A DNA stretch of 64,000 nt from Alphaproteobacteria bacterium (lineage in GTDB: Bacteria > Pseudomonadota > Alphaproteobacteria > SP197), in assembly GCA_965228895.1 (NCBI GenBank), contig OZ245842.1:256001-320000 (forward strand), written 5' to 3'. The position numbers and the translations under genes were made by a program. How positions within the stretch are numbered: the first letter of the stretch is position 1; every line of letters starts with the position of its first letter. Of the stretch, positions 20,886 through 40,433 are shown in pieces. The notes under the pieces were generated by a model. The model was not told the origin of the DNA, did no database searches, and was given only the letters and a program-made list of their open reading frames with translations.

Positions 20886-21024
20886 CTAGAGCAGATCCCG
20901 TTTTGATGGAATCGCGCTGCGATGCCATCAGAACGGGTGAATCTGCTCTACTCAGAAATAGAGAGCGGATTCACGTGATTAGGTGGAACCGTTCATCGGT
21001 TCCACCTAATCACGACCCGCTCTA
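20886..21024. repeat. Double-hairpin repeat, copy 5
   Basis: Closely similar to copy 4; its right end CTA is the uvrC stop. Confidence 0.9.
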
Positions 21025-23038: not shown

Positions 23039-23698
23039 TCAGTCTTTGGGCTGCGGTACGATGCGCAGGTAGGGCTTCGGCGCTTTCCAGCCGCCCGGGA
23101 ACCGTTCCTTGGCCTCGTCGTCCTTGACCGCCGGTACGATGATGACGTCGCCGCCCTGCTGCCAGTTCGCGGGTGTCGCGACCTTGTGCTTGGCCGTCAA
23201 CTGGCAGGAATCGAGCAGGCGCAGGATCTCGTCGAAGTTGCGGCCCGTGCTCATGGGATAGGTCAGCATCGCCTTGATCTGCTTGTCGGGGCCGATCACG
23301 AAGACCGAGCGTACGGTCGCGTTGTCGACCGGCGTGCGGCCTTCCGACGTGCCGCCGGTATCGGCCGGCAGCATGTTGTAGGCCTTGGCGACGGCAAGCG
23401 TGGGGTCGCCGATCAAGGGGTAGTTGACCGCATGCCCCTGGGTTTCCTCGATATCCTTCGACCACTCCTCGTGGTTCGACACCGGATCGACGCTAAGGCC
23501 GATAATCTTGCAGTTGCGCCTGTCGAACTCTTTCTTCATGCCGGCGACATAACCGAGCTCGGTGGTGCAGACCGGCGTGAAGTCCTTGGGATGCGAGAAC
23601 AGAATGCACCAGCCGTCGCCGATCCAGTCGTGGAAGCTGATGCTGCCCTCCGTCGTATCGGCCGTGAAATCGGGTGCCGTGCTGTTGATGCTAAGCAT
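23039..23698 (-). CDS. 1-Cys peroxiredoxin (Prx6 family)
   Basis: HPKDFTPVCTTE and GRNFDEILR motifs; ATG with RBS at 23698. Confidence 0.95.
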   Translation of the reverse strand: MLSINSTAPDFTADTTEGSISFHDWIGDGWCILFSHPKDFTPVCTTELGYVAGMKKEFDRRNCKIIGLSVDPVSNHEEWSKDIEETQGHAVNYPLIGDPTLAVAKAYNMLPADTGGTSEGRTPVDNATVRSVFVIGPDKQIKAMLTYPMSTGRNFDEILRLLDSCQLTAKHKVATPANWQQGGDVIIVPAVKDDEAKERFPGGWKAPKPYLRIVPQPKD

Positions 23699-23825
23699 GG
23701 ATGAGTCTCCCCCTATAGGTTGCTGAACGATGCGGGTTCCAGCGTCGCCGTTGTGGCTCGGCGAATCAATGTGGACTCCGCATATGGGTTGGAACCTTGC
23801 CGTGTTGAAGATGCGGAAACAAATG

Positions 23826-23856
23826 AAAGGGGCCGGTCCGCGACGCGAACCGGCCC
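23826..23856 (-). terminator. Probable intrinsic terminator after fhs
   Basis: GGGGCCGG...CCGGCCCC stem followed by Ts on the minus strand. Confidence 0.55.
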
Positions 23857-23882
23857 CGATCAAGCAGGTTTGATGCGGTGGC

Positions 23883-25565
23883 TCAGAACAGACCGGAAAT
23901 ACGCCCGCTGTCGTCGACGTCGATTTTGTCGGCGGCGGGTACGCGGGGCAGGCCCGGCATGGTCATGATGGCGCCGGTGATGACGACCAGGAATTCGGCC
24001 CCGGCCGACAGCCGGACCTCACGGATCGGCACGTTGAAGCCGGAGGGCGCCGCCTTCAGTGTCGGATCGGTCGAGAAGCTGTACTGGGTCTTGGCCATGC
24101 AGATCGGGAAGTTGCGCGCCGGCGTCTCGTCGAGTTCACGAAACTGCTTGCGGATGGTGTCGTCGGCCTGGATGTCGTCGGCGCCATAGATCTCCTGCGC
24201 GATCGTGCGGACCTTATCCAGAAGCGGCAAATCGTCGGCATAGAGCGGCTTGAAGTCGCTGGGCGTGGTGTCGATCATGTCGACGACGGCCCGCGCCACG
24301 TCTTCGGCGCCGGCGCCGCCATCGGCCCAATGATTGGCCTCGACGCAACTGATGCCCTCGGCTGCGGAGAGTTCCAGCAGTTTGGCCATCTCCGCATCGG
24401 TGTCGGTGATGAACCGGTTGACCGACACGATGGCGGGAACGCCGAACTTGCGGACGTTCTCGATATGACGGCGAAGGTTGGCGAAACCGGCTTCGACAGC
24501 CGCAACATTCTCGTCCTTCAGGTCGTCCTTGGCGACGCCACCGTGCATCTTGAGCGCGCGAATGGTGGCGACGATGACAGCGCAGTCGGGCTTCAGGCCG
24601 GCCTTGCGGCACTTGATGTCGAAGAACTTTTCGGCACCGAGGTCGGCGCCAAAGCCGGCTTCGGTGACGACATAGTCGGCCAGCTTCAAGGCCGTGGTCG
24701 TGGCCAGTACGCTGTTGCAACCATGGGCGATGTTGGCGAACGGGCCGCCATGGACAAAGGCCGGGTTGTTCTCCAACGTCTGCACCAGGTTGGGTTTGAT
24801 GGCGTCTTTCAAGAGCGCAGCCATGGCGCCCTCGGCATTGAGCTCTGCGGCGGTCACCGGCTTGCGCTCGCGGGTATAGCCGACGACGATCTGGCCCAGG
24901 CGGCGCTTCAGGTCGTGCAGGTCGGTCGCCAGGCAAAAGATCGCCATGACCTCCGAGGCCACGGTGATGTCGAACCCGTCCTCGCGCGCGAAACCGTTGG
25001 CGACGCCGCCCAGGCTGTTGACGATCTGACGCAGCGCCCGGTCGTTCATGTCAACGACGCGGCGCCAGGCAACACGGCGGGTGTCGATGCCCAAGGCGTT
25101 GCCCCAATAGATGTGGTTGTCGATCATCGCCGCCAGCAGGTTGTTGGCGACGCCGATGGCGTGGAAATCCCCGGTGAAGTGAAGGTTGATGTCTTCCATC
25201 GGGACGACCTGGGCATAACCGCCGCCCGCGGCGCCGCCCTTCATGCCGAAGGAGGGGCCAAGCGATGGTTCGCGCAGGCAGATCAGAGTCTTTTTGCCGA
25301 TGCGATTCAGCGCATCGCCCAGGCCGACGGTGGTTGTCGTCTTGCCTTCGCCCGCCGGGGTCGGCGTGATCGCGGTGACCAGGATCAGTTTGCCGTCCGG
25401 CCGGTCCTTGATCTCGCTGATGTAGTCCAGCGAGATTTTCGCCTTGGTGTGGCCATAGGGTTCCAGGAATTCTGGGTCGATGCCTAGGCGGTCCTTGGCC
25501 AACTCCATGATTGGTTTGATCGTGGCGGCTTGGGCAATTTCAATATCGGATTTCGGCGTGGCCAT
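23883..25565 (-). CDS. fhs: Formate--tetrahydrofolate ligase
   Basis: [33 protein letters not shown] and [10 protein letters not shown] motifs. Confidence 0.98.
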
Positions 25566-25676
25566 CGGCGGTTCCCCTGTTGGCGCGGCATTATCGGGAA
25601 GTAGGTGGAAGGGACTTTAGCGGCGGCCGTGCGGCGGTCGCGCAAGGAATCGACGTATCGTGTCGCGCCCGGTCCT

Positions 25677-25706
25677 AATTGGTGGAATTGGTTCCAAATT
25701 GGCTTA
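25677..25706. promoter_or_regulatory. Triple AATTGG repeat; candidate FadR/GntR operator upstream of fhs
   Basis: AATTGGTGGAATTGGTTCCAAATTGGCT matches the motifs at 36292 and 36369. Confidence 0.6.
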
Positions 25707-25782
25707 GCGCATGGTCCTCAGATTCGCCCTGCAGGTCAAGCCATGCTGGCCCAAATCCGGCCTATTTTCACAGTGCTTTGAG

Positions 25783-25819
25783 CAAAGAAAAGGGCGGTGG
25801 ACCGAAGCCCACCGCCCTT
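25783..25819 (-). terminator. Intrinsic terminator of the amt / small-protein unit
   Basis: AAGGGCGGTGG...CCACCGCCCTT stem with a T-tract on the minus strand. Confidence 0.7.
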
Positions 25820-25841
25820 GATCGTTTTGATCGACGCCGGG

Positions 25842-26078
25842 CTACTTCTCGACCATGGCGTCGTACGTACCGCGATGATCCAGCGCCTTGTCCAGCCCGA
25901 CTTCGCGGTAGTAGGTCAAGGCCCGGTCGTACTCATCGTTTTCGGATCGGATCTGCCAGATGTGCCAGATGATCCAGACCAGAACACCGACGATCACCAG
26001 GATCCCTTCGATGCCCGGGAACGGGTAGATGGCGCCCAGGTTGGCGATATCACCCCAGCTTTCGACATTGGTCGACAT
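25842..26078 (-). CDS. Small single-TM hypothetical protein downstream of amt
   Basis: RBS AGAGGAGG, one TM helix (GILVIVGVLVWIIWHIW), 19 bp after amt. Confidence 0.8.
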   Translation of the reverse strand: MSTNVESWGDIANLGAIYPFPGIEGILVIVGVLVWIIWHIWQIRSENDEYDRALTYYREVGLDKALDHRGTYDAMVEK

Positions 26079-26097
26079 GCTCTTCCTCCTCTAAGGC

Positions 26098-27561
26098 TCA
26101 GTCGCCCTGACCACGGGCCAGTTCACGGTCGATATCCTCCTGGGCCGTATCGCGGTAAGTGAAATACGGGAAGGCATCGCCATAGTCGTGGGTGTCGAGA
26201 CCGGCGAGTTCGACCTCGCGCGGCACACGCAACCAGCCCAGCGAGTCCAGGATCTTCGACACAACCCAACATGGGATGAAGCCGAGCACCCAGAACATGA
26301 TGATGGCGCCGATGAAGTTACCCAGCGGGTTGATGATCGCGATGCCTTCGGGGGTGCTGCCGAACAGGCCCTGGACTTCGCCCATGACGTTGGACGGGTA
26401 GCCCCAAAGCATGAAGCCGGCGATGACCGTGCCGAGGAAACCGGCATAGCCATGCACCGCGACCGCGCCGACCGCATCGTCGATCTTGAACCGACGCTCG
26501 ACCCAATAGTGCATCTTGTAGGCGAACCAGACACCGACCATCGCGATCAACATGGCTTCGATCGGATGATAGAGGTCGTTGCCCGCCGACGCACAAATGA
26601 TGCCCGCCAGACCACCCGAATAACTCCAGAACGGATCGCCGCGGCTCACCATGTAACCCGCGAGCAGACCGCCGGACAGCGACATCAGGAAGTTGAACGT
26701 GATCGCCGACAAGGTTGTCGGTGTCAGATAGATGTTCGTAGCGGTGAAGTACGGTTCAGCGCCCTCAAGGCCTAGAACAGCGCCATTGAAGTCGATGATC
26801 GGGATGTTGCAGGCCGCGTAGAAACCCCAGAAGCCCGTATAGATCAGGAACAGGCCGACCGTGACGAGCCACGGATTGTTCTTCGGGAAATCGCGCGGCG
26901 TGCCGTCCGCGGCGAACTTGCCGAGACGTGGGCCGAGCACCACCAAGATGGCGAGCGCCGAGCCGCCGGCAATGCCGTGCACCACCGATGACGCGTAGGC
27001 GTCGTGGTAGCCCAAGAGCTGCACCATCCAACCGTTGTAGGACCAGCCCCAGGCCGCGTCGATGATCCACGTTACCGAGCCGACCAAGACAGCCAGGATC
27101 AGGAATCCCTGGGTCTTGATGCGCTCGATCACCGCGCCGGACACGATCGAGGCCGTGGTCCACGAGAACAGCAGGAAGGCCGCCCAGAACACACCGTTGA
27201 TTCGCGACCACCAGCCGTGATCATCCACGGTCAAGCTACCGGTCTGAACTGTGATCTCCCCACCCAGGTGGGTACCCATCATTTCCGACCAGGGCAGGGC
27301 CCAAGGCGCTTCACTGAATCCGCCCATGAACGGGAAGTACGGAAACGCGAAATAGATCCACCAGCCGAAGAAGAAGAACGTGATGGTCACCAGCGGGATG
27401 AGCATCGTGTTCTTCATCAACGTGTGCTGGACGTTCTTGCGGCGCGAGGCGCCGACCTCATAGACACAGAATCCGACATGGATCAGGAACATCATCACGA
27501 CCGTGACCCAATAGTAGAATTCCGTGAAGATGACGGTAAGTGAGTCTAAACCGTCAGTCAT
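26098..27561 (-). CDS. Divergent Amt-family ammonium/methylammonium transporter
   Basis: SIVSGAVIER, VVHG, GPRLGKF and DDAVGAVAVHG (twin His) motifs. Confidence 0.92.
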   Translation of the reverse strand: MTDGLDSLTVIFTEFYYWVTVVMMFLIHVGFCVYEVGASRRKNVQHTLMKNTMLIPLVTITFFFFGWWIYFAFPYFPFMGGFSEAPWALPWSEMMGTHLGGEITVQTGSLTVDDHGWWSRINGVFWAAFLLFSWTTASIVSGAVIERIKTQGFLILAVLVGSVTWIIDAAWGWSYNGWMVQLLGYHDAYASSVVHGIAGGSALAILVVLGPRLGKFAADGTPRDFPKNNPWLVTVGLFLIYTGFWGFYAACNIPIIDFNGAVLGLEGAEPYFTATNIYLTPTTLSAITFNFLMSLSGGLLAGYMVSRGDPFWSYSGGLAGIICASAGNDLYHPIEAMLIAMVGVWFAYKMHYWVERRFKIDDAVGAVAVHGYAGFLGTVIAGFMLWGYPSNVMGEVQGLFGSTPEGIAIINPLGNFIGAIIMFWVLGFIPCWVVSKILDSLGWLRVPREVELAGLDTHDYGDAFPYFTYRDTAQEDIDRELARGQGD

Positions 27562-27662
27562 TCCCCAGATCCCCCTCGTTTAGTAGCGCATAGTCTCCCA
27601 TCTCGCGGTGTTGTCATGGCCCGCTTCGATGTCGCGCAAAGTCTAGGGAGTTTTTAACCGGC

Positions 27663-27678
27663 TGCAACTGTGTTGCCA
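27663..27678 (-). promoter_or_regulatory. Sigma-54 (-24/-12) promoter candidate for amt
   Basis: Minus strand reads TGGCAACACAGTTGCA with correct GG-N10-GC spacing; near-IHF site TATCAACTGTTTC at 27684-27696. Confidence 0.6.
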
Positions 27679-27782
27679 TCGGTTATCAACTGTTTCACCT
27701 TGGGAAACTTTTTGAAGATGTTTGACGTGATGGCAGCCGGTGTTAGAAAACGACCTTGTTTCAAGGGTTTGGTGCAATTTTG

Positions 27783-28358
27783 ATGGTCGAAGACAACAGC
27801 CTGACTGACGCTGGCGCGGCGCTCAGACGCCATTTTTTGGGGTGGCAGTGCCGCATCCGCCAGCATGCCATGCGCCGCGACGCCGGCCGTCCGTCCGATG
27901 GCATGCGCCCGGAACTGCAGCGTATCGACGGCGACGGGCTGGGCCGTATCACCGTGGTGATCTGTGAAGCCGACCCGGATGCGACGACGGATCAGTTCCG
28001 CCACATCGTGCAGCGCACCATGGATCCGCAGGAGCGCTTCAAGAAAGGCGTTCAGTTCCTGTCATCGGCCTATTTCCAGAAGGGCGATACGTTTTGCGAC
28101 GCCCTGCTCGCCCTGTTCGGCGCCGATACGGCGGTGGCGGCAATCCTGGATGACGAGCGGTGCGTGCTGGCCTTTCAACAGTTCAGCCAGAGCTATCGTC
28201 TGCCTTGCCGAGTCGAGCGGCTTGAGCAGGAGGATCGTTTGGCGCAGGCATTGTTGTGGCACAACAGGATGTTCAATCCGAACATCCCGCCTGATGTGTT
28301 ACCCGTCGCCTTTTGGCCGATATGGGATGAGGGAACGGCGTTTCCGCCGGCCGATTGA
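27783..28358 (+). CDS. Hypothetical protein divergent from amt
   Basis: Coding-like GC3 pattern; FLGWQCRIRQHAMR N-terminal motif; family not recognised. Confidence 0.75.
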   Translation: MVEDNSLTDAGAALRRHFLGWQCRIRQHAMRRDAGRPSDGMRPELQRIDGDGLGRITVVICEADPDATTDQFRHIVQRTMDPQERFKKGVQFLSSAYFQKGDTFCDALLALFGADTAVAAILDDERCVLAFQQFSQSYRLPCRVERLEQEDRLAQALLWHNRMFNPNIPPDVLPVAFWPIWDEGTAFPPAD

Positions 28359-28369
28359 CGATCGCGCGA

Positions 28370-29062
28370 TCAGAACTGGTATCTGACGGTCACTATCAAA
28401 TCATGAGACGTGATGCGGTCGGAACTAAAGCTCTCGCCGCCGGCCAAGGTGCCGCTGTCGAAGCCGCCTAGGTAGAGAAACCGGTAGGCGGTGCCAAGAT
28501 CCCACTGGTCGCTGAGCAGGTAGTCGATTCCCAAGGTGGCACCAAGGGCCAGGTTGTCGTCGTCGGTCGTCACATTGGTCGTCGCGTTGGTCGCGATCAC
28601 CGTGCGATCGACATCCGATGTGTTTCGCGCCCATCCCATCATGGCGCCGACAAAAGGCCGCCAATCGCTTTCGCCGCGAAACTCGTAGGCCAGACCGAGC
28701 AGCACCGTTGTCGACGACAGATTGTTCTCGTAACCGACCGTCGCTGGCCCGTTGACGGCGCGCAGGTCGATGTCCTGACGGAACCGGTAGCCGACCTCCA
28801 GTTCGGCGCGCAGCGGCACGTCGCCAAATCGGTAGCCGAAGGAGCCTGCCGCACCGGCGGTCGTGTCGTCGTCATGGTTGATCAGCAGGGTGCCAGCCAA
28901 ACCTGACGCGGTGATCTTGCGCACGTTGGTGTAGCCACCAAAAGCGCTAACGCCGATGTAGAAGCCGGCGTCGTCGCCGACAGCCCGGTCCGGCAGCCAC
29001 ACGCCAAGAGTCGCAAGGCACGCGGCGATTGCCATGGCCTTGCGGAGTTTGCCCCCGATCAT
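28370..29062 (-). CDS. Outer-membrane beta-barrel (OmpA/opacity-like)
   Basis: Signal peptide, alternating beta-strands, RAELE motif, C-terminal RYQF; start uncertain. Confidence 0.85.
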   Translation of the reverse strand: MIGGKLRKAMAIAACLATLGVWLPDRAVGDDAGFYIGVSAFGGYTNVRKITASGLAGTLLINHDDDTTAGAAGSFGYRFGDVPLRAELEVGYRFRQDIDLRAVNGPATVGYENNLSSTTVLLGLAYEFRGESDWRPFVGAMMGWARNTSDVDRTVIATNATTNVTTDDDNLALGATLGIDYLLSDQWDLGTAYRFLYLGGFDSGTLAGGESFSSDRITSHDLIVTVRYQF

Positions 29063-29402
29063 CGCGAATCCGCCCCCCTGGCCCCGCATAGATAAGCACC
29101 AGCTATCGGCAATATCGGTTCGACGTCAAAGGCTAATGTTCAATAGTCGACAAATGCCACGCTCTGGAGACCATCGGTGCGCAAAACCAAAACGGGTCGA
29201 TCGAAGCCCTTCATGCCAGCAGAATCATCCGTCATACTCTCTCTGGGCACACCGAGTCTTTCCGTGTGCTGGTGCAGGACCGTTTGGGCCATTGGCAATC
29301 CGAAACGTCAATCTTGTGCCGCATTTGCTGGATAGAGACCGATCGGTGCCCCACGTCTTGTTGGACGTGGTGATCATCGGACTCTGGGACGGGGGAAGAA
29401 AA

Positions 29403-29564
29403 ATGATTGATCATTATCGTAAGTTATTTTTTGCTTTGATCGCAGCGATGGCGCTGGGACTTGGTGTTGCCGCGTGCGACGACGGCGGTTCCGGTGACAG
29501 CGGGTCGAGTGATAGCGAGACTTCCAGCGGTGACTCCGGAAGCAGCGACGCTGGCAGTAGTTAA
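29403..29564 (+). CDS. 53-aa lipoprotein with a Ser/Gly/Asp low-complexity body
   Basis: MIDHYRKLFFALIAAMALGLGVAAC lipobox, purine-rich RBS, own terminator. Confidence 0.7.
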   Translation: MIDHYRKLFFALIAAMALGLGVAACDDGGSGDSGSSDSETSSGDSGSSDAGSS

Positions 29565-29607
29565 CGACAGCGGCGTTTGATCCGCCGCTTTCTTGAGCCA
29601 GAGAAGC

Positions 29608-29646
29608 AAAAAGGCTCCGGACGTCGCACCGTCCGGAGCCTTTTTC
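29608..29646. terminator. Bidirectional intrinsic terminator
   Basis: AAAAAGGCTCCGGACG...CGTCCGGAGCCTTTTT between convergent genes. Confidence 0.85.
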
Positions 29647-29668
29647 GTAATGGTCTGGTGACCGTTAT

Positions 29669-30058
29669 CTAGAACTTTCGATAGGCCTTGTTGAGATCGC
29701 GCATGGGATGGCGATCCGACATCTGGAACTTGATCAACAGTTCCCGCGCGATCATGTCGCGGTCCTGCTGGTTGTCAGGCAGCTCCATGTCATCGGGCAG
29801 GCGAATCCAGCCGTTGGCGTTGCGATCAAACACCGCCGGGCTGCCCTCTTCGTAGCCCATGTGGACGTCCTCCAACCAATTGAGGTCGTCCCAGCCCATG
29901 ATCTCGATGTAGTCCTTCAGGAACGGCGTGAGCCTTTCATAGTCGGGCAGCAGATTGACATCGTAGCGATAGCCGATGTGCTGGCCGATGACCTTCTCGC
30001 GTTCCGTGTCGAGACCGTCGGTCTTCAGAAAATGGTCGATATCCTTGACGTCGCTCAT
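29669..30058 (-). CDS. Hypothetical protein, last gene of the mgs/glx-like operon
   Basis: ATG with a GGAG RBS 13 bp after the mgsC-like stop; 129-aa acidic soluble protein. Confidence 0.8.
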   Translation of the reverse strand: MSDVKDIDHFLKTDGLDTEREKVIGQHIGYRYDVNLLPDYERLTPFLKDYIEIMGWDDLNWLEDVHMGYEEGSPAVFDRNANGWIRLPDDMELPDNQQDRDMIARELLIKFQMSDRHPMRDLNKAYRKF

Positions 30059-30071
30059 CGAGGCATCTCCC

Positions 30072-31445
30072 TTAGAGGTGGTGATAGTCGGCGACGCCGA
30101 CCGTGTGGTTGGTGCCGGCCAGGGGCACGCCCGCCATGGCGGACGCTTCCATGGTGAGAGCCGCCAGATCTTCCGGCTCCAGGCTGTGCACATTGGTCTT
30201 GCCGCAGGCGCGCGCCATCATCTGACACTCGATGGTGAGGGTGTGCAGGATGTTATAGACGCGCTCGGCCGCATCGTCGGGGTTGAGGCGCTTCCTGAGC
30301 TCCTCGTCCTGGGTCGCAACGCCCACCGGACAACGGCCGGTATGGCAGTGATAGCAGTAGCCGGCGGGAACCCCGATGGTGCCTTCGTAGTCGGCCTCCG
30401 GGATATCCTTGTTGCAGTTCAGCGCCATCATCGCCGTGGTGCCGATTGCAACGGCATCGGCGCCCAGCGCAATCGCCTTGGCCAGATCGCCGCCGTTACG
30501 GACACCGCCGGCGTAGATCAGCGTGATCTCGCCGCGCTTGCCCAGATCGTCGATCGCACGACGCGCCTGACGGATCGCCGCGATACCCGGCACGCCGGTC
30601 TCCTCGGTCGCCAGGTGCGGGCCGGCGCCGGTCGAGCCTTCCATGCCATCGATATAAATGGAGTCGGGATCGCACTTCACGGCCATACGCACGTCGTCAT
30701 ACACGCGCGCCGCGCCCAGCTTGAGCTGGATCGGGATCTGGTGATCGGTGGCTTCGCGGATCTCCTGGATTTTCAGCGCCAGATCGTCCGGACCCAGCCA
30801 GTCGGGGTGACGGGCCGGCGAACGCTGGTCGATGCCGGCCGGCAACGAGCGCATTTCGGCGACCTGGTCGGTCACCTTCTGGCCCATCAAATGGCCGCCC
30901 AGGCCGACCTTGCAGCCCTGGCCGATGAAAAACTCGCAGCCGTCGGCCAGCAGCAGATGGTGCGGGTTGAAGCCATAGCGGGACTGGATGCACTGATAGA
31001 ACCACTTCTCGGAGAAGCGGCGCTCGTCGGGGATCATGCCGCCTTCACCCGAACACGTCGCCGAGCCCGCCATGGTGGCGCCACGCGCCAGCGCGGTCTT
31101 GGCTTCGTAGCTCAGCGCGCCGAAGCTCATGCCGGTGATATAGACCGGTATATCGAGCTCGATCGGGCGCTTGGCGCGTGGGCCGATGACCGTCTTGGTA
31201 TCGCACTTCTCGCGATACCCTTCGATCACGAAGCGGGTCAGTGTGCCCGGCAGGAACGTCAAGTCGTCCCATGTCGGAATCTGCTTGAACAGCGCCATGC
31301 CGCGCATGCGGTAACGGCCCAGTTCGGCCTTGATGTGGATGTCGTCGACGACACGCGGCGTGAACAGGAAGTTCTCGCCCAGGATATCCTTGTTGCGGGT
31401 CGCGCCCGGTGCGTGCTCGGTGACGTCTTCTTTTGCTTTCGCCAT
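30072..31445 (-). CDS. FMN-binding glutamate-synthase-family subunit (N-methylglutamate synthase C / GlxD-like)
   Basis: MSFGALS, SGEGG, GQGCKVGLGGHL and CYHCHTGRCPVGVATQ (Fe-S) motifs. Confidence 0.88.
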   Translation of the reverse strand: MAKAKEDVTEHAPGATRNKDILGENFLFTPRVVDDIHIKAELGRYRMRGMALFKQIPTWDDLTFLPGTLTRFVIEGYREKCDTKTVIGPRAKRPIELDIPVYITGMSFGALSYEAKTALARGATMAGSATCSGEGGMIPDERRFSEKWFYQCIQSRYGFNPHHLLLADGCEFFIGQGCKVGLGGHLMGQKVTDQVAEMRSLPAGIDQRSPARHPDWLGPDDLALKIQEIREATDHQIPIQLKLGAARVYDDVRMAVKCDPDSIYIDGMEGSTGAGPHLATEETGVPGIAAIRQARRAIDDLGKRGEITLIYAGGVRNGGDLAKAIALGADAVAIGTTAMMALNCNKDIPEADYEGTIGVPAGYCYHCHTGRCPVGVATQDEELRKRLNPDDAAERVYNILHTLTIECQMMARACGKTNVHSLEPEDLAALTMEASAMAGVPLAGTNHTVGVADYHHL

Positions 31446-31470
31446 GTTCTAACTCCTGAGAAGACCGCCC

Positions 31471-32319
31471 CTAAAGGACGATCTTCTTCTCCGACGGCTC
31501 GAGGTTGTCGTAGTTCCAAAGCTGCTTGCCGGCCACGATCTTGGTCAGGTTCTCGACGCCGTTCGGCGCCTCCATGCCGTACATCTTCAGCTTGCGCTCC
31601 AGCCATGCCTTGTCGAGTTCGGTCATCTCGCCTTCGACCGCGTCAACGCCGAGGCCTTCGATCTTGCCGCCGACAAAGATCGTGCCGTCATACATGGAGT
31701 CGCCGAGGTTCTTGCCGGCATCACCCAAAACGACCATCCGACCGCGCTGCATCATGAAGCCGGAGAACGCACCGGTGCGTCCGCCAACGATGATGGTGCC
31801 GCCCTTCTGGTCGATACCCGTGCGCGAGCCGACATCGCCCTTGCAGACGAGATCGCCGCCGCGGATCGCGGCGCCGAAGGTGGAGCCGGCGTTCTTTTCG
31901 ATGACGACCGTGCCGGCCATCATGTTCTCCGCGCACGACCAGCCGACGCGGCCGGTGACACGCACGTTCGGCCCGTCGATCAGGCCGACGCCGAAGTAAC
32001 CCAGGCTGCCTTCGAAGGTCAGGTTCAATCGGCTCAGGATGCCGACGCCCAGCGAGTGGCGAGCCAGCGGGTTCTTGATCACGATCGAACCATAGCCTTC
32101 CGCCATCAGCGTCCGGATCTTCAGGTTGATCTCGGAGATTTCCATCTCGGCTGCGTCGACTTCGGCGCGTTTGTTGAAGTCGACATCCGGCGCCTCGGGA
32201 TAGAGCAGGTTGTCGGACTCTTCGAGATCGAAGAACCGCTGCTGCGTGCGTCCGGTCAGCTGCTCGGTATGCAGCCCCATTTCATGGCTGACATGATCGT
32301 CTGTTTCTAGCTTCGCCAT
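31471..32319 (-). CDS. GXGXG beta-helix subunit (MgsB / GlxC-like)
   Basis: GXGXG repeats (GWSCAENMMAG, GSRTGIDQKGG, GDSMYDG). Confidence 0.88.
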   Translation of the reverse strand: MAKLETDDHVSHEMGLHTEQLTGRTQQRFFDLEESDNLLYPEAPDVDFNKRAEVDAAEMEISEINLKIRTLMAEGYGSIVIKNPLARHSLGVGILSRLNLTFEGSLGYFGVGLIDGPNVRVTGRVGWSCAENMMAGTVVIEKNAGSTFGAAIRGGDLVCKGDVGSRTGIDQKGGTIIVGGRTGAFSGFMMQRGRMVVLGDAGKNLGDSMYDGTIFVGGKIEGLGVDAVEGEMTELDKAWLERKLKMYGMEAPNGVENLTKIVAGKQLWNYDNLEPSEKKIVL

Positions 32320-33242
32320 ACCCGAACCTCCCGGTCATAGGGGTCAATGGTGTCGATTTCCTGGGGCAGCACCTGGCGGATGGCGACCTCTTCCGACGCC
32401 ATGGCGACGAGGTCGTCGCTTTCGTAGAGCACCATCGGCTTGGCGGCCATGACGTCCTTGGCCATGCCCAGGCTGTCGTTGGTCGCGACCAGATAGGTGA
32501 ACACGCCGTCCAACTCGTCGACCGACTGGTTCATCGCGGTTTCCAGGTCGATGCCGGATTCCAGCTTGTCGGCCAGATAGACCGCGATCAGCTCGCTGTC
32601 GCAGTTCGACTGGAAGCGGAACGATTTACGCTCCATCTCGCGGCGCATGATCCAGTAGTTGGTCAGCTGGCCGTTATGAACGACGGAGATGTCGTTATAG
32701 GGATAGGCCCAATAGGGATGGGCGGAACGGATATCGACGTCCGATTCCGTCGCCATGCGGGTGTGGCCGATCGCATGCGTGCCCTTGAAGCCCTGCAGCT
32801 TGTACTGATCGGCGACCGTCGTCGCGTCACCCAGATCCTTGATCAGCTCCAGCGCGTTGCCGAGCGACAGGATTTCGGTGCCTTCGACGTCCTCGACGAA
32901 GTCAGCCATCTTGCGCATGTCGCCATCGAAGGTGAAGCGATAGCGGAAGGCGTACTCGGTGGCATCGACCATCTCGGTCACGTTGACACCCAGGTCCTTC
33001 AGGCGCTTGTCGACTTCGGCGCGCCGCTGCTTGACCTCGTCGTGGATCTGGAAGCCTTTTGCGAGGTCTTCCTGTTCGGCGACCATGAACCGCATGACAT
33101 ACTCGTTGCTGCCGGCCGAGCCATAGACCGCGAAACCCGTCGAATCCGGGCCGCGGTGCTTCAGCGACTGCAGCATGGCGGTCATCTCGGTGCCGATATC
33201 ACCCGCGCCGTTGCGGTGAATAATTCCGGCGATACCACACAT
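32307..33242 (-). CDS. Class II (Ntn) glutamine amidotransferase subunit (MgsA / GlxB-like)
   Basis: N-terminal MCGIAG; HRGPDS, GHTRMATES and VHNG motifs. Confidence 0.9.
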   Translation of the reverse strand: MCGIAGIIHRNGAGDIGTEMTAMLQSLKHRGPDSTGFAVYGSAGSNEYVMRFMVAEQEDLAKGFQIHDEVKQRRAEVDKRLKDLGVNVTEMVDATEYAFRYRFTFDGDMRKMADFVEDVEGTEILSLGNALELIKDLGDATTVADQYKLQGFKGTHAIGHTRMATESDVDIRSAHPYWAYPYNDISVVHNGQLTNYWIMRREMERKSFRFQSNCDSELIAVYLADKLESGIDLETAMNQSVDELDGVFTYLVATNDSLGMAKDVMAAKPMVLYESDDLVAMASEEVAIRQVLPQEIDTIDPYDREVRVWRS

Positions 33243-33320
33243 GGGTGTCGTCCTCCTTCTACGTTAAAGACGGCAACGGCGGCGGCGCCCATGGCCGCCG
33301 CCGTTGGTTCATCAGCCTTG

Positions 33321-34796
33321 TTAGGGCAGGCAATCCCAATAGGTCTCCAGGTCCCACTCGGTGACGGTGGCCATGAAGTTTTCCCATTCGTTGGTCTTGT
33401 AGTGCTTGTAGACCTTGTACATGTCGCCGGGCATGGCCGACTTGATGACGTCGTCGTTGTCGAGGGCTTTGAGTGCGTCGCCCAAAGACATCGGCAGCTT
33501 CTTAACGATCTTGCCTTCGTCCATGGCCTCGTAAATGTTCCGCTCTTCCGGTTCACCCGGATCGAGCTTCTTGGTGATGCCGTGGTCGAACGCCTGGATG
33601 ATGGCCGAGGCCATCAGGTAGGGGTTCACCATCGAGTCGACGGCACGGTACTCGAACCGGCCGGGTGCCGAGACGCGCATGCCGGTCGTGCGGTTCTGAT
33701 AACCCCAGTCGGCGAAGACCGGTGCCCAGAAACCGGTATCCCACAGACGGCGATAGCTGTTGACGGTCGGGCAGCCGATGGCGGTCAGGGCGTCGAGATG
33801 AGCCATGACGCCGCCGATCGCTTTGAGGCCGACCGGACCTGGCTTCTGCTTGTCCTTGCCCGACGGCAGGAACAGGTTGGTGCCGCCCTTGCGATAGCTG
33901 AAGTTCTCCTTCAGGCCCGGCAGGCTGTTGCCGTTGCCCAGTGAATTGACCTCGTCCTTACCGCCGGTCCACAGCGAGACGTTGTGATGGCAGCCATTGG
34001 CCGAGACACCCATGAACGGCTTCGACATGAAGCAGGCGATCAGGTTGTTTTCGCGCGCGACCTGGGCGCAGATCTGGCGATAGGTGCTCAACCGGTCGGC
34101 GGTCCTGAGCGCGTCGTCAAACTGGAAGTTCAGCTCAAGCTGGCCGGGCGCGTCCTCATGGTCGCCCTGGATCATGTCCAGGCCCATGGCGCGGCTGTAC
34201 TCGATCACCTTCATGAAGACCGGGCGCAGGCTCTCGAACTGATCGATGTGGTAGCAGTTCGGCTTGGAGAAACCGCCGTTCGGCAGGCCGTCCTCACCCT
34301 TCTTCAGCCACATCATTTCCGGCTCGGTGCCGTGGCGCAGATGCATGCCCTTGTGCTTCTTCTGGAAGTCGTCGTGGATGCGGCGCAGGTTGCCGCGGCA
34401 ATCGCCGGTAAAGAAGCCGCCGGGATCCTTCTTCTCTTCCCGGTTACGGAAACAGGTGACGTAGACGCGGGCAACGCGCTTGTCCCAGGGCAGCTGCACG
34501 AAAGTCTCGGGGTCGGGAATGCCGACCAGCTCCGAAGACTCCGGCCCGTAACCGATGTAGTGGCCGTAGCGATCGACATAGAGGTTGGCGACCGAGCCGT
34601 AGACCAACTGGAAACCCTTCTCGGCGATGGTCTCCCAGTGGTCCGCCGGCACGCCCTTGCCGACGATGCGGCCGGTGACCGAGATGAACTGGTAATAGAT
34701 ATAGTCGATGCCGAGCTGGTTGATCTTCTCGCGCACCTGTTTGACCTGAGTCGCGCGACCTCTTTTCCTTACATATTCCTCGATGGCCATGGCCAT
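33321..34796 (-). CDS. Glutamine-synthetase-family ligase (GlnT / gamma-glutamylmethylamide synthetase candidate)
   Basis: EPE, DHEDAPGQLE, KPF...NGCHHN, PTVNSYRRL and RFEYR motifs; adjacent to mgs-like genes. Confidence 0.85.
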   Translation of the reverse strand: MAMAIEEYVRKRGRATQVKQVREKINQLGIDYIYYQFISVTGRIVGKGVPADHWETIAEKGFQLVYGSVANLYVDRYGHYIGYGPESSELVGIPDPETFVQLPWDKRVARVYVTCFRNREEKKDPGGFFTGDCRGNLRRIHDDFQKKHKGMHLRHGTEPEMMWLKKGEDGLPNGGFSKPNCYHIDQFESLRPVFMKVIEYSRAMGLDMIQGDHEDAPGQLELNFQFDDALRTADRLSTYRQICAQVARENNLIACFMSKPFMGVSANGCHHNVSLWTGGKDEVNSLGNGNSLPGLKENFSYRKGGTNLFLPSGKDKQKPGPVGLKAIGGVMAHLDALTAIGCPTVNSYRRLWDTGFWAPVFADWGYQNRTTGMRVSAPGRFEYRAVDSMVNPYLMASAIIQAFDHGITKKLDPGEPEERNIYEAMDEGKIVKKLPMSLGDALKALDNDDVIKSAMPGDMYKVYKHYKTNEWENFMATVTEWDLETYWDCLP

Positions 34797-34909
34797 GGGT
34801 ACGTCTCCCCCTATGTTGCCTCAGTCAGTGTTGCCGGCCGCCGACATGGCGACGGATCGTTGGGAGCTTGGCGTGCCGCGCGACAACGAGTCAACGCGGC
34901 GCCGCGCGA

Positions 34910-36247
34910 TCAGCTCCAAGGAAACGGGCTGTGTGAAACCGGATGCAGTTTGCCCTCTGCATAACGTGAAAAACGGAACGGCTCGAGCAGCGCGCTCTTG
35001 TCGCCGACGACCTCACCGGCGACCAATTTTCCGATGCCGATCATCTTATAGCCGTGGTTCGAATCGGCGATGATGTGAACGTTGTCGCAGAACGTGTCGA
35101 TGACCGGAAAGCTGTCCGGCGTGAAGCAGCCCAGACCGCCGGACGGTTCTGTCTTCCATTTACCGATCTGGCCGGAAAAACGCTCCTGACAGGCAGCCAG
35201 CGCCGAACACCACATGTGGGCGAAGTCGTCGCCGACAATGAAGTCCGGGGAGTCCGGGCCATACGGGTCGACAGCGACCTCGTCGACCGGCGTCTCGACC
35301 TTGTAGGGCATGGCGCCGCCCTGAATGCCGTCGAAGTGGAAATCGGGCTTGTAGTAAATGCCCCACATCTCCTCGGTGATGACCGAGCCGTCGACATCGG
35401 AGTGCAGCGGCACATCGGTATCGACGTGGATCACCGGCGGCATGCCGCCATCGTTGGTCTTCTGAAAGTCCGGATCGACGCCCAGCACGCCTTCTTCCAG
35501 GCACCAGTATTTCCACATGCCGATGCCGTCATGCATCGTGCCGTCGGCGCCCTTGATCGAGACTTCCTTGGGCAGCTCCAGCATGTCCCAGATGTGTTTG
35601 ACCCAGGGACCGACACCGACGATGACCGCGTCGGTCTCGATGTCGCCCTTGTCGGTCTTAACCTTCGAGACGGCGGCGCCGCTGCGCTCGAACCCGGTGA
35701 CCTCGCAGCCGGTGATGATGCGGACATCTTCCGACTCCGCTTTGGTCGCCAGGCCATAAATCGACGACGTGTTGTTGGCGTAGCCGCCCTTCTTTTCGTG
35801 CAGCACCGAGGTGATGCCCGGCGCGCGCCAGTCACTCAGGATGTTTTTCATATAGGCCAGGCATTCATCCTGACCTTCAATGAAACTCGACTCGTAGCCG
35901 ATGGCCTGCTGCTGTGAATAGATCTGCGCGACATCCTCGTGCATCGACTCGCAGGAGATCTGCATGTAGCCGACCGGGTGGTAGTGGTAGGCCTCCGGGT
36001 CGCTCTCCCAGACCTCGACGCACTGCGCCATCAACTCGCGCATGGCCGGCTGGAAGTAGTTGTTGCGCACGACTCCGCACGCGATGCCGCTGGCGCCCGC
36101 CGCGATACCGGTTTTGTCCAGGACGACGATGTCCTTGCCGCTGCCTTTGCCGCGCGCCTTCAGCTCCAGCGCAAGGTGGTAGGCTGTGCTCAGACCGTGG
36201 ATACCGGCGCCAATGATTACGTATTTGGAACTGGTGGGAAACGCCAT
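34910..36247 (-). CDS. FAD-dependent oxidoreductase (DAO / sarcosine oxidase family)
   Basis: IIGAGIHG dinucleotide fold; ASGIACGVVRNNY, FTPDSFPVI and HGYK motifs. Confidence 0.88.
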   Translation of the reverse strand: MAFPTSSKYVIIGAGIHGLSTAYHLALELKARGKGSGKDIVVLDKTGIAAGASGIACGVVRNNYFQPAMRELMAQCVEVWESDPEAYHYHPVGYMQISCESMHEDVAQIYSQQQAIGYESSFIEGQDECLAYMKNILSDWRAPGITSVLHEKKGGYANNTSSIYGLATKAESEDVRIITGCEVTGFERSGAAVSKVKTDKGDIETDAVIVGVGPWVKHIWDMLELPKEVSIKGADGTMHDGIGMWKYWCLEEGVLGVDPDFQKTNDGGMPPVIHVDTDVPLHSDVDGSVITEEMWGIYYKPDFHFDGIQGGAMPYKVETPVDEVAVDPYGPDSPDFIVGDDFAHMWCSALAACQERFSGQIGKWKTEPSGGLGCFTPDSFPVIDTFCDNVHIIADSNHGYKMIGIGKLVAGEVVGDKSALLEPFRFSRYAEGKLHPVSHSPFPWS

Positions 36248-36291
36248 GCTCGTCGACCCTTCGTTAGAGGACTCTGGTGCGTTTGACGACC

Positions 36292-36399
36292 ATTGGTCCA
36301 AATTGGCTAGATTGGCGGTTCGCCGCGGTGGAGCTTGACGTGGCCGCCATTTGCCCCGACCATGTGGTAATCCAATTCTAGTCCAATTGAACCAATTTG
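36292..36399. promoter_or_regulatory. Two inverted arrays of ATTGG repeats; candidate FadR operators
   Basis: ATTGGTCCAAATTGGCTAGATTGG and, inverted, CCAATTCTAGTCCAATTGAACCAATT in the divergent intergenic region. Confidence 0.65.
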
Positions 36400-36425
36400 C
36401 GCTAGCTAAGTCCGGTGGGAAAACG

Positions 36426-37166
36426 ATGTCAAGTGAAAGCGCGCCGTTCCGCCATGAGCTGACCGCCAACCGCGTTGAAGGCGCCCGCGAATTGCCCCTG
36501 CCGAGCTCGAAAAGCGCGGCGGCAATCGCCTCTCAATTGCGCCAGGCGATTTTGGACGGTGTCTACGTCAACGGCGAGCGCTTGCCGGCCGAGCGTCAGT
36601 TGGCGACGGCCCTGGCCAGCTCGCGCACCACGGTGCGCGAGGCGCTGCGCATCCTCGAGCACAGCAAGTTCGTCACCCGCCGGGTCGGCAGCGGCACGTT
36701 CGTGACCTTCCGGCCGGAGGCTGCGGAAGAAGACGTGGCCGAGGTCACCAGCCCGCTTGAACTGGTCGATGTGCGCCTCGCGGTCGAGCCCCACATGGTC
36801 AGGCTCGCCACCCTGCATGCGACGTTGCGCGACCTCGACCGCATCCGCGAGACGCTCGAGGCGCTCGATGATGCCGGCGAAAGCTCCGAAGCGTTCACCA
36901 AATGGGACCGCACGTTCCACCAGCTGGTCGCCGAGGCCACCCACAACCCGTTGATGATCTCGATCTACCGCCAGATCAACCATGTGCGCGGCCACCGCCA
37001 GTGGAACGCGATGAAGGACAAGGTGCTGACCGCCGAAAGTATCGACGCCTACAACCGCCAGCATCGGGCCCTCTTCGAGGCCCTGAAGGCGCGCGATGCA
37101 GACGCAGCGGTCGCGGTCGTCAACGAACATCTTGTTTCGGCGCGCCAGCAGCTCAGCGTCACCTGA
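36426..37166 (+). CDS. GntR/FadR-family regulator (FCD domain)
   Basis: GERLPAERQLA..SRTTVREAL..GSGTFV HTH; FH..VAEATHN motif. Confidence 0.93.
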   Translation: MSSESAPFRHELTANRVEGARELPLPSSKSAAAIASQLRQAILDGVYVNGERLPAERQLATALASSRTTVREALRILEHSKFVTRRVGSGTFVTFRPEAAEEDVAEVTSPLELVDVRLAVEPHMVRLATLHATLRDLDRIRETLEALDDAGESSEAFTKWDRTFHQLVAEATHNPLMISIYRQINHVRGHRQWNAMKDKVLTAESIDAYNRQHRALFEALKARDADAAVAVVNEHLVSARQQLSVT

Positions 37167-37259: not shown

Positions 37260-37382
37260 CTATCAACACAATCTGTGGGTAACTCTGTAGACAGATGACC
37301 TGACATCATGGCGCGAGCGCAGGAATCCCGCTTGCGTGACGAGCTTGCCTAAAATTTAGGCATAATTGTCAACTCGTTGATT
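37260..37382. promoter_or_regulatory. DARS-like element: three DnaA-box-like 9-mers, Fis-like palindrome, IHF consensus
   Basis: CTATCAACA-caatc-TGTGGGTAA-ctc-TGTAGACAG; GCCTAAAATTTAGGC at 37347-37361; AATCAACGAGTTG on the minus strand at 37370-37382. Confidence 0.55.
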
Positions 37383-37582
37383 TAAAAGAATTAATCCGTA
37401 AATCATTGTGACGGTGGCTTGACCGACCAGCGACGGACCGCTTGACAGGCCGCACCAGTCGGCGGGTTGGAGCGCCTGTGCACAAGAGGCCGTTCAATGG
37501 CTCGATTGTGGCCTGAAACCCTTCGCTCTTGGCGATTTCGAACCACTTTTGGGCGGTTCGTGGCCGGGCCCGTCCCAAACGG

Positions 37583-37948
37583 CTAGGCGCCCGATTCGCG
37601 GTGGCGTGTCAGCTCGACCCCTGCCGCCGCCGCGTCGGCGATGGCAGCGGGCTTTTCGACACGGATCTGGACGGCGGTGACGCCCGGCTCGGCCAGGCAG
37701 GCTTCCGCCAAGCGATCGGCGAAGGTCTCGACCAGATCGATATGGCCGGCGTCCAGGATCGCCCGCGCATGGTCGACCGGGCGCCGGTAATCGACGACCT
37801 CACCGATATCGTCCTGCTCCGGGGGCTGGTCCTCGACGTCCAGGGTAATCGTGACAATCAGGTCTTGTGCCGTTTCACGCTCGTGATCCAGCACGCCGAT
37901 CGATGCGGTCAGTCTGAGGTCGCGCACGAAGATGCGGCGGGTGCCCAT
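37583..37948 (-). CDS. folB: Dihydroneopterin aldolase
   Basis: IGVLDHE...Q, VDY, LVETFA and RVEKP motifs. Confidence 0.92.
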   Translation of the reverse strand: MGTRRIFVRDLRLTASIGVLDHERETAQDLIVTITLDVEDQPPEQDDIGEVVDYRRPVDHARAILDAGHIDLVETFADRLAEACLAEPGVTAVQIRVEKPAAIADAAAAGVELTRHRESGA

Positions 37949-38780: not shown

Positions 38781-40433
38781 CTACCCTTCCTTAGGTGCCA
38801 GTTCGGCGCACAGGCGTTTAAGCTGCTCGGAGGCGTCGTTCTGGTCGAGCATGACCTCGATCAGGGCCGGCCGGTCGTCCAGGCCGAAGGCGGTTTGCAG
38901 GGCGGCTTCCAGCTCACCTTCGGTGCGCACCCTGACCCCCCAGCCGCCGCCGAACACCTCCGGCAGGCGATGGTTCTCCCAGCCCTGGATGTCGTTATAG
39001 GGGCCTTCGTGGATCAGTCTTTCGGCGGTATAGCCGTTGTTGTTCATCACGAAGATGATGGGGTTCAGGTTGTGGCGGATGATCGTGCTGAGCTCCTGCA
39101 CCGTCATCTGAAACGCGCCGTCGCCGATGAAACTCATGATCCGCCGGTTGGGCGCGGCAAGCTGGGCACCGAGCGTCGCGGGCAACGTGAAGCCGATCGA
39201 GAGATAGAAGGCCTGGCCCAGGAAACCGACATCGCGGTGCATGACCAGATCGGCCGCGCTGAACAGGGCATCGCCCGCGTCAGCAATGACGATGACATCG
39301 TCGCTGATCAGGTCGTTCATGCGCGAATAGAAACGCCTCACCGTGATGTCGGCGTCCGGTTTGACTGTGATCGCATGGTCGAGCGCATCGGACGCGGGGA
39401 TGAAGGGTCCGGATCTCAGCCCATTGTCGGGCATGCGTGCAGCAAGACCGCTGACGAGATCACCAAGCGCGACGGGCTCATAGAAGTGGTGGCGGATGCG
39501 CACGCGCCCGGAGTTGGCGTTCACCAGGCGGTCATCGTCGAGACGCGCGGTGTAGACGCCCAAATCCATCTCGCTCATCCAGGCGCCCAGGCACAGCAGG
39601 AGATCCGCGTCCTCGACGACGCTGCGCACCTCGGGCCGGCTCGCGACGCCCTCGTAGACTCCGACCGCCTGGGGATCGAGCTCGGAGATGACGGTCTTGC
39701 CGAGCAAGGTGGTGGCGACCGGCATGCCCGACTTGGCGACCAGTTCGTCGAACGCGTCGAGCAACTCATAGCGATGCAATTCGACGCCGGCCAGGATCAC
39801 AGGACGTTCGGCGGCGCTCAGCAGTTCCATGGCTTCGTCGGTCGCCTCGGCAAGGCTGGCCGGATCGCTTTCCGGCGCCGGCGGCGGCGTGAACGGGCCG
39901 GGCGCCCGGCACGGCAGATCGACCACATCGACCGGGATCTCGATCGAAACCGGCCGTTTCTGTGACAAGCACGCATGCAACACCGCGTCGATCTCGTCCG
40001 GCGCGGTTTCCGCGTCGCTCAGGTTGGCCGTCGCCACGGTGATGTGGCCGAACACGGCGTCCATGGTGGCGATGTCGCCGACGCTGTGATGCAGCAACAT
40101 GGCGGGATTGCGTAGATCGAGCCGCGGTCCGCCGGTAACGACGACCAGCGGTACCTGTTCCGCATAAGCGCCGGCAACCGCGTTGACCGCGCTGAAGCTG
40201 CCAACGCCATAGGTCACGCAAAGGGCGCCGATGCCATTCATACGGGCATAGGCGTCAGCCGCGTAGCCGGCGTTCAGCTCGTTGCACGTGCCGATCAGCT
40301 CAACGCCACCTTCCAGGATGCGGTCCATAAAGGTCAGCACATAATCGCCGGGCACACCGAAAACGTGGTCGATGCCCGCCTGCTTCAGGCGCTCGACGAG
40401 GTAGCGGCCGACTGTCATGGACGTGTCGTTCAT
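38781..40433 (-). CDS. TPP-dependent 2-oxoacid decarboxylase (Pdc/IpdC family)
   Basis: FGVPGDY, CNELNAGYAADAYAR, LLHH and GDGAFQM...NN motifs. Confidence 0.92.
   Translation of the reverse strand: MNDTSMTVGRYLVERLKQAGIDHVFGVPGDYVLTFMDRILEGGVELIGTCNELNAGYAADAYARMNGIGALCVTYGVGSFSAVNAVAGAYAEQVPLVVVTGGPRLDLRNPAMLLHHSVGDIATMDAVFGHITVATANLSDAETAPDEIDAVLHACLSQKRPVSIEIPVDVVDLPCRAPGPFTPPPAPESDPASLAEATDEAMELLSAAERPVILAGVELHRYELLDAFDELVAKSGMPVATTLLGKTVISELDPQAVGVYEGVASRPEVRSVVEDADLLLCLGAWMSEMDLGVYTARLDDDRLVNANSGRVRIRHHFYEPVALGDLVSGLAARMPDNGLRSGPFIPASDALDHAITVKPDADITVRRFYSRMNDLISDDVIVIADAGDALFSAADLVMHRDVGFLGQAFYLSIGFTLPATLGAQLAAPNRRIMSFIGDGAFQMTVQELSTIIRHNLNPIIFVMNNNGYTAERLIHEGPYNDIQGWENHRLPEVFGGGWGVRVRTEGELEAALQTAFGLDDRPALIEVMLDQNDASEQLKRLCAELAPKEG

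Follow-up and report, generated by a model that had tools for sequence, protein, structure and literature searches.

A 226-bp non-coding module (37260-37485), present once in its alphaproteobacterial genome, is read here, with a probability of roughly 0.55, as a DARS2-like site on the chromosome for reactivating DnaA, at which NtrC would stand in for Fis. The window analyzed is a stretch of 64,000 nucleotides (positions 256001-320000 of a genome that forms a single 5.53-Mb contig, which puts the module at 293.3 kb), and coordinates below are those of the window unless the contig is named. The reading comes from sequence comparison, that is, from the kinds of site present, their rigid spacing and the co-occurrence of the module with an NtrC domain. 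In the accessible parts of the literature, the recharging of ADP-DnaA is described for E. coli and its close relatives only, and with a DARS-type module present in single copy in roughly two thirds of the sampled alphaproteobacterial families, DnaA recycling would become directly accessible in this class. The module also names NtrC as a candidate cofactor, which may do in alphaproteobacteria the replication-timing job done by Fis in E. coli; it predicts a link between nitrogen and replication, and it offers a functional reason for the Fis-like stubs of NtrC described below. The literature covered, which lies largely outside subscription journals, holds no report of an alphaproteobacterial DARS or of NtrC at one; Fujimitsu 2009 may list candidates.

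Architecture and conservation of the module

The module opens with a core of three DnaA boxes. Box I, CTATCAACA (37260-37268, plus strand), is opposed to box II, TGTGGGTAA (37274-37282, minus strand), across a 5-bp spacer, and box III, TGTAGACAG (37286-37294, minus strand), follows in tandem with box II after 3 bp, giving a 9-5-9-3-9 layout. Against the E. coli consensus TTWTNCACA, boxes I, II and III carry two, one and three mismatches, box II being the best conserved. The original prediction had placed three DnaA-box-like 9-mers here in forward, reverse and reverse orientation, had credited boxes I and III with two or more mismatches each, and had given the 5/3 spacing for E. coli DARS1; all of this is borne out, and E. 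coli DARS2 has the same 9-5-9-3-9 layout as well.

Beyond the core, at +86 from box I, lies a 17-bp palindrome, TGCCTAAAATTTAGGCA (37346-37362, no strand assigned), which is Fis-like, is a putative NtrC site and stands at +84 to +86 in relatives. A predicted IHF site at +110 (37370-37382, minus strand) matches the consensus exactly, as had been noted from the start, and a distal, fourth DnaA box at +217 (37477-37485, minus strand) has the orientation of boxes II and III, which it roughly mirrors about the IHF site. The IHF site sits midway between the core and the distal box, with the palindrome between core and IHF site. In either orientation, the first base of the IHF consensus WATCAA falls at about +120 from box I; with the IHF bend placed relative to its consensus as is generally known, this suggests that the position of the bend is what is conserved. 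The genome has three genes of the IHF/HU family. The motifs first quoted for this gap are real and make up only part of the module; the distal box, with which the longer module ends in an alignment of family loci, had been missed. A CcrM-type GANTC site (GAATC, 37323-37327), also pointed out earlier, is present but is not a conserved part of the module, occurring in 30 of 119 modules among the matches listed. A GC-rich inverted repeat is visible by eye around it (37311-37345), and the alignment holds no conserved structure there. The sequence TTGACA (37442-37447, plus strand), 28 bp before the distal box, is kept within the family only and is followed by no -10 element.

Judged by the E. coli consensus alone, the core in this single genome is not above chance: three sites with at most six mismatches occur genome-wide at the 5/3 spacing, against 0-5 at the other spacings tried. 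When 28 modules from other families supply the weight matrices, the module is unique in the genome, the core scoring 33.3 bits against 16.2 for the next match and the whole module 86.9 against 27.9. Conservation in relatives had been named as a check, and the arrangement is clearly conserved. Half of 20 family loci keep the convergent gap, and all ten of these have the core; in the other ten, the GntR gene and folB abut (seven loci) or a different neighbor is found (three loci). Across the class, a stricter core pattern occurs in 81 of 401 genomes (reversed control, 0) and a looser core-alone pattern in 79 of 150 (reversed control, 1). The palindrome-IHF block stands at +84 to +86 in 28 of 30 loci picked by the core alone, as found with a palindrome-IHF matrix refined on those same rows. 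With a sequence-only model, 98 of 150 class genomes match strongly (E ≤ 1e-7), most of them in one copy; in G073, G219, G418, G046 and G151 more than one module, whole or partial, was seen, with some cores standing back to back.

A scan of a species collection with boxes II-III and the palindrome returned at least 122 stretches, assigned by record title to alpha-, beta- and zetaproteobacteria, Nitrospira and Geobacter; Paracoccus and Azospirillum are among the genera in the matches listed. No title among these stretches carries a rhizobial or Caulobacter genus, many titles being unspecific, and viral contigs gave no module match. Counts at fixed offsets used the 119 stretches that were long enough, among the matches listed. 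Box I, the IHF site and the distal box, none of which belonged to the search pattern, recur at set places. Box I appears with at most two mismatches at offset 0 in 76 of the 119, against 0-13 at other offsets; in 94, the first consensus base of an IHF site lies 33-37 bp from where the palindrome starts, against 3-23 in control windows; and a distal reverse box with at most one mismatch lies between +180 and +235 in 75. The distal offsets in these matches cluster near +190, +202 and +214, and helical phasing, which steps of about 12 bp would suggest, is not claimed, the steps amounting to just two or three lineage-linked clusters.

A candidate reactivation site and its rivals

ADP release by E. 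coli DnaA on boxes I and II depends on a head-to-head contact that needs Gln208 and Leu290, and DARS2 needs an IHF loop that brings Gln68 of Fis to DnaA; the core is treated as the defining unit of a DARS, with conserved spacing, reviews mention DARS-like sequences in many proteobacteria with reference to Fujimitsu 2009, and the occurrence of Fis is described as limited to gammaproteobacteria (accessible portions of PMC4245941, PMC10380432, PMC4585315, PMC11724364, PMC6090056, PMC5343134, which gives no motif, PMC6868365 and PMC5742627, our sources on DARS, datA, DnaA and NtrC). By analogy with E. coli, ADP-DnaA would bind boxes I and II of the module head-to-head, with box III in support, and ADP would be released, so that DnaA reloads ATP before initiation. 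The geometry of the module suggests that IHF would bend the DNA at about +120 and fold the distal box back onto the core, and that an NtrC dimer between core and bend would license the reaction, either by a further bend or by a contact.

The DnaA of this genome keeps Leu290, Phe239 and Lys243 as well as Arg281, Arg285 and Arg334. The position of Gln208 is occupied by Tyr, as in all 15 module-bearing family DnaAs aligned, and the position of Fis Gln68 is Ala in the C-terminus of this NtrC and varies in the stubs. Trp288, beside Leu290, is found in 82 of 92 module-bearing genomes (77 by DNA pattern, with one false match dropped, and 5 of 15 by alignment; 5 further module-bearing genomes lie outside the count) versus 4 of 25 module-less genomes (those of 30 for which DnaA was retrieved), and it is lost in all 14 module-less family DnaAs aligned. 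We do not take Trp288 for a required DARS residue: 10 module-bearing genomes do without it and module-less DnaAs are divergent overall, which leaves a correlation only. Family genomes without dusB-ntrBC and the module have a long-branch DnaA, in which the GW motif after the arginine finger is replaced in two ways.

The cumulative GC-skew minimum of the contig falls at 5.05 Mb, hemE (a name recognized from the sequence) ends at 5.055 Mb and dnaA lies at 4.77 Mb; four presumed parS sites stand at 5.037-5.041 Mb and a presumed dif site at 2.27 Mb. With oriC placed near hemE, the module is about 0.75 Mb away, at about 0.29 along one arm, and in 15 genomes the position ranges from 0.01 to 0.76 of an arm and is not conserved (oriC assumed opposite dif, 10 of the 15 genome sizes rounded). 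Elsewhere on the contig, an isolated cluster of three DnaA-like boxes with an overlapping IHF-like site (contig 5294060-5294140, about 240 kb from oriC) forms a possible datA-like site, and an exact IHF consensus lies upstream of dnaA (contig 4765173-4765185) with several GANTC sites around it. The DARS-like regeneration site of the original prediction holds up in its conserved core, in the IHF site at fixed distance and in not being oriC; it needs qualifying in that the order of sites differs from DARS2 and neither Gln208 nor Gln68 is conserved. Along with these three departures, the variable chromosomal position and a datA-like arm speak against the DARS2 reading.

That arm allows an alternative, which we regard as unlikely, in which the module acts as datA does. 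According to the accessible sources, datA carries out the reaction opposite to that of DARS; here IHF would loop the distal box onto tandem boxes II-III, the site would hydrolyze or titrate ATP-DnaA, and box I and NtrC would only modulate. In E. coli datA, two tandem boxes are indeed separated by 3 bp, with an IHF site and, 162 bp on, a box of the same orientation, and the distance from box III to the distal box is 191 bp here and about 161-191 bp in relatives among the matches listed; Arg281, Arg285, Leu290 and Arg334 of DnaA are kept as well. In addition, 8 of 20 weak or odd module matches are reduced copies that persist near uvrC or folB; boxes II-III and the distal box are in place, but box I is missing, as is a palindrome at +83 to +87. 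A good IHF site is present in 5 of the 8, the NtrC HTH is absent in 2, and a palindrome-like sequence lies a few bases off in one. However, most copies of the module keep box I at the exact DARS spacing, the order of pair and single box is reversed against datA relative to box direction, and the module is usually far from oriC.

Because box I and the palindrome are lost jointly while the pair, the IHF site and the distal box stay, the two resemble a single functional unit that was added to a frame of the datA kind. The same joint loss, together with the overlap of both architectures within one element, would fit a two-state switch in which the IHF loop acts as datA without NtrC, and the NtrC-bound form, with box I engaged, acts as DARS. 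We consider such a switch quite unlikely: just eight reduced copies speak for it, picked from weak matches, and one family, which lacks an NtrC-type HTH, keeps the core, box I and the IHF site around a palindrome that has decayed. We know of no precedent for a two-state switch between datA and DARS.

The surroundings of the module bear on a further possibility. It lies in a 416-bp gap between a GntR/FadR-family regulator gene (36426-37166, plus strand), which ends at the module, and folB (37583-37948, minus strand), convergent genes as first described, with the start of uvrB about 3 kb away, also as first described; a pyruvate/indolepyruvate-decarboxylase-like gene (38781-40433) sits between an SDR gene and uvrB. 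The usual left neighbor in other alphaproteobacteria, uvrC (21022-22947, minus strand), is 14 kb off, no DnaA core remains upstream of it in this genome, and the module has stayed with folB. Among the matches listed, with neighbors named by their best matches in this genome, 57 of 118 loci have uvrC as their left neighbor, facing away from the module; folB (33) or an SDR gene (18) is the right neighbor in 51 of the 118, and priA on the left and hemE on the right account for 10 each. The 14-kb block that separates uvrC from the module carries peroxiredoxin, fhs, amt-like, glutamate-synthase-like and glutamine-synthetase-like genes and ends with the GntR gene; amidotransferase and FAD oxidoreductase genes also lie in it (23039-37166), and the block resembles a cluster for the N-methylglutamate (methylamine) pathway.

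The pairing of NtrC with IHF is familiar from classic promoters, and uvrC starts just left of box I in those 57 loci. The module could then be a transcriptional control region of uvrC, with DnaA, NtrC and IHF acting on a promoter, that was stranded by the insertion or re-used for the nitrogen-linked block, whose amt-, glutamine-synthetase- and glutamate-synthase-like products would suit such re-use. The original prediction had itself named a leftover uvrC promoter as an alternative, and the position upstream of uvrC elsewhere does keep that idea in view, but it fits badly here, where the module is separated from uvrC, and we hold it to be improbable. The module is intact between convergent genes, 14 kb from uvrC, in several genera; searches of the module found no sigma-70 promoter or terminator, and no match to the CtrA or LexA box motifs; extra copies occur elsewhere; and betaproteobacterial loci have other neighbors (priA, hemE and others). 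From locus to locus, uvrC lies anywhere between about 20 and 350 bp away, yet the internal spacing is fixed, which argues for a self-contained site.

The palindrome and its likely binder

In the DARS2-type reading that we prefer, the palindrome is most likely an NtrC site. It had first been described as Fis-type, with a binder that might be unknown; the palindrome is real and canonical Fis is absent, but the binder can now be named with some likelihood. All six HTH_8 matches in this genome lie in frames of 310-523 aa, none of the six being a stand-alone Fis, and one of these proteins is the NtrC equivalog, with GAFTGA. When the genome was scanned with a palindrome matrix built without the module site, that site ranked first (28.9 bits), followed by a pair at the start of dusB-ntrB-ntrC (24.2 and 15.6 bits); a site before glnB-glnA scored 19.9 bits, and the other top sites among the matches listed have no evident nitrogen genes nearby. 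In Caulobacter, strong NtrC ChIP-seq peaks contain near-identical 17-mers, and the motif is reported to resemble that of Fis (North 2023, PMC10274813, accessible text). Among the 51 Caulobacter NtrC peaks in the accessible part of that source, none is listed at uvrC or folB, a comparison made on peak lists, and the flanking sequence given for peak 20 does not match the IHF site. A metagenome scan for the peak-20 motif gave no match, and a crescentin search found no genome of the Caulobacter group among 191.

In raw counts, the module and the NtrC domain go together across the class. A profile of the NtrC C-terminus matches in 123 of 151 class genomes. Of 122 genomes with an NtrC-type HTH, 96 have a strong module and 26 do not, whereas 2 of the 28 genomes that lack the HTH have one. 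With the training genomes, the present genome (G000) and G057 removed, the figures are 85 of 111 versus 1 of 27; G057 is included in the tallies of NtrC profile, module, core and Trp288, and no claim depends on it alone. The core alone, scored without the palindrome, occurs in 77 of 122 HTH-positive versus 2 of 28 HTH-negative genomes, and one fragmented assembly (G072) has a perfect palindrome and no NtrC match. All 33 family genomes are concordant, 17 with module and NtrC domain and 16 with neither. The 16 may form one clade (support 70/91, not rejected; 7 of the 16 tested), and two independent losses, although suggested by the locus data, are not claimed, a single clade not being rejected. 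Mapped onto a DnaA tree of 48 rows, changes of state number at least 12 for the module and 10 for the HTH.

A protein other than NtrC, NtrX or another Fis-type enhancer-binding protein, might bind the palindrome with DnaA and IHF doing the same work, the co-occurrence then reflecting shared genome reduction. Five further HTH_8 matches in this genome supply candidates, the family co-loss removes dusB and ntrB along with ntrC, and module-less genomes have generally divergent DnaA. Of five module-less family genomes checked, three have ispDF about 1.1 kb before ntrY, with no room for dusB-ntrB-ntrC, and in the other two dusB, ntrB and ntrC are absent from the 1.5 kb examined. In an independent-pairs test on the DnaA tree, only two pairs had supported branches, for a p of 0.5, and no pair ran the opposite way. 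Even so, we regard another binder as highly improbable: the five module-less family genomes keep ntrY-ntrX, the best other palindromes stand at NtrC's own operon and at glnBA, and in G205, which has the module, the sole HTH_8 protein is a 94-aa stub of NtrC.

Such stubs are frequent. The NtrC domain sits in a frame of less than 200 aa in 35 of 150 genomes, 28 of which have a strong module, and among 28 such genomes, picked because they have the module, 23 have dusB directly followed by an ORF that matches only the last 50-110 NtrC residues. Stand-alone Fis-like ORFs right behind dusB, in the ntrBC position, were also seen in many small alphaproteobacterial genomes and fall below the NCBIfam Fis cut-offs where scanned. 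Three stubs with Ser replacing the recognition-helix Asn go with Fis-type palindrome variants (the G031 palindrome being imperfect), a possible shift in recognition specificity. Because stub lineages retain just the Fis-like C-terminus, the job would need DNA binding and neither the receiver nor the AAA+ domain; the DNA-binding stub may suffice, and nitrogen gating would be possible, and not required, in lineages with full-length NtrC.

We put forward more tentatively a wider reading, in which NtrC would also have an ancient role as cofactor of replication initiation, at a single two-way DnaA exchange station on the chromosome, datA-like without NtrC and DARS-like with it; this would be why stubs survive behind dusB in the many alphaproteobacterial families from which NtrB and the rest of NtrC have been lost. 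Fis reportedly derives from alphaproteobacterial NtrC, a proposal of Morett and Bork (1998). If the wider reading is true, the cofactor job would explain how Fis arose, and species with full-length NtrC would have a direct link, at the level of DNA, from nitrogen status to initiation.

That the module is a replication origin, a structured RNA or a chance cluster is scarcely credible: DnaA boxes, an IHF site and an AT-rich patch do mark origins too, and the single-genome consensus scan is not above chance, but GC-skew minimum, parS and dif place oriC near hemE (the module lying neither at the minimum, nor opposite dif, nor near parS, which led us to reject identity with oriC), the RNA searches gave no Rfam match, no consensus pairs or structure in 80 copies and no listed RNA holder, and conservation excludes chance.

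Comparison with known sites

Alphaproteobacterial NtrC sites, as given for Caulobacter in the accessible text of PMC10274813, share with the module a 17-bp palindrome of the GCC-N9-GGC type, which in this genome also stands at dusB-ntrBC and glnBA. Unlike them, the module palindrome is single, has no adjacent gene start and is phase-locked with DnaA and IHF sites. Besides the tandem pair, IHF site and far box shared with datA, the module has an opposed box I and a predicted NtrC site, which datA lacks. E. coli DARS1, in the bioD-uvrB spacer, has the same core and likewise neighbors a uvr gene (uvrC in most alphaproteobacterial copies; uvrB here, 3 kb off); unlike the module, it shows no palindrome-IHF block and, as far as the accessible sources describe it, needs neither IHF nor Fis.

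The module has counterparts to the following parts of DARS2, which lies in the rppH-mutH spacer of E. coli (Kasho 2014, PMC4245941; Kasho 2025, PMC11724364; accessible portions): the 9-5-9-3-9 core whose box I is opposed, the IHF site about 95-120 bp away from that box, the Fis-type site and a further DnaA box at about +211. The same spacer contains another 9-5-9-3-9 core, 316 bp past that of DARS2; an IHF-like site accompanies it at +119, a register shared with betaproteobacterial modules. Unlike DARS2, which runs core-IHF-Fis, the module runs core-palindrome-IHF-distal DnaA box, its IHF site lies about one helical turn further out, its distal box is mainly in the opposite orientation, its predicted binder is NtrC or an NtrC stub, and DnaA Gln208 and Fis Gln68 are not conserved. 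The module resembles DARS2 and probably works like it, yet it departs from three features of DARS2 membership: its IHF site does not lie midway between the core and the Fis-type site, stand-alone Fis with Gln68 is absent and NtrC has Ala there, and it does not keep the position relative to oriC that is conserved for DARS1 and DARS2. With the DARS core it shares the opposed three-box 5/3 layout, a spacing held across species and a non-coding locus away from oriC.
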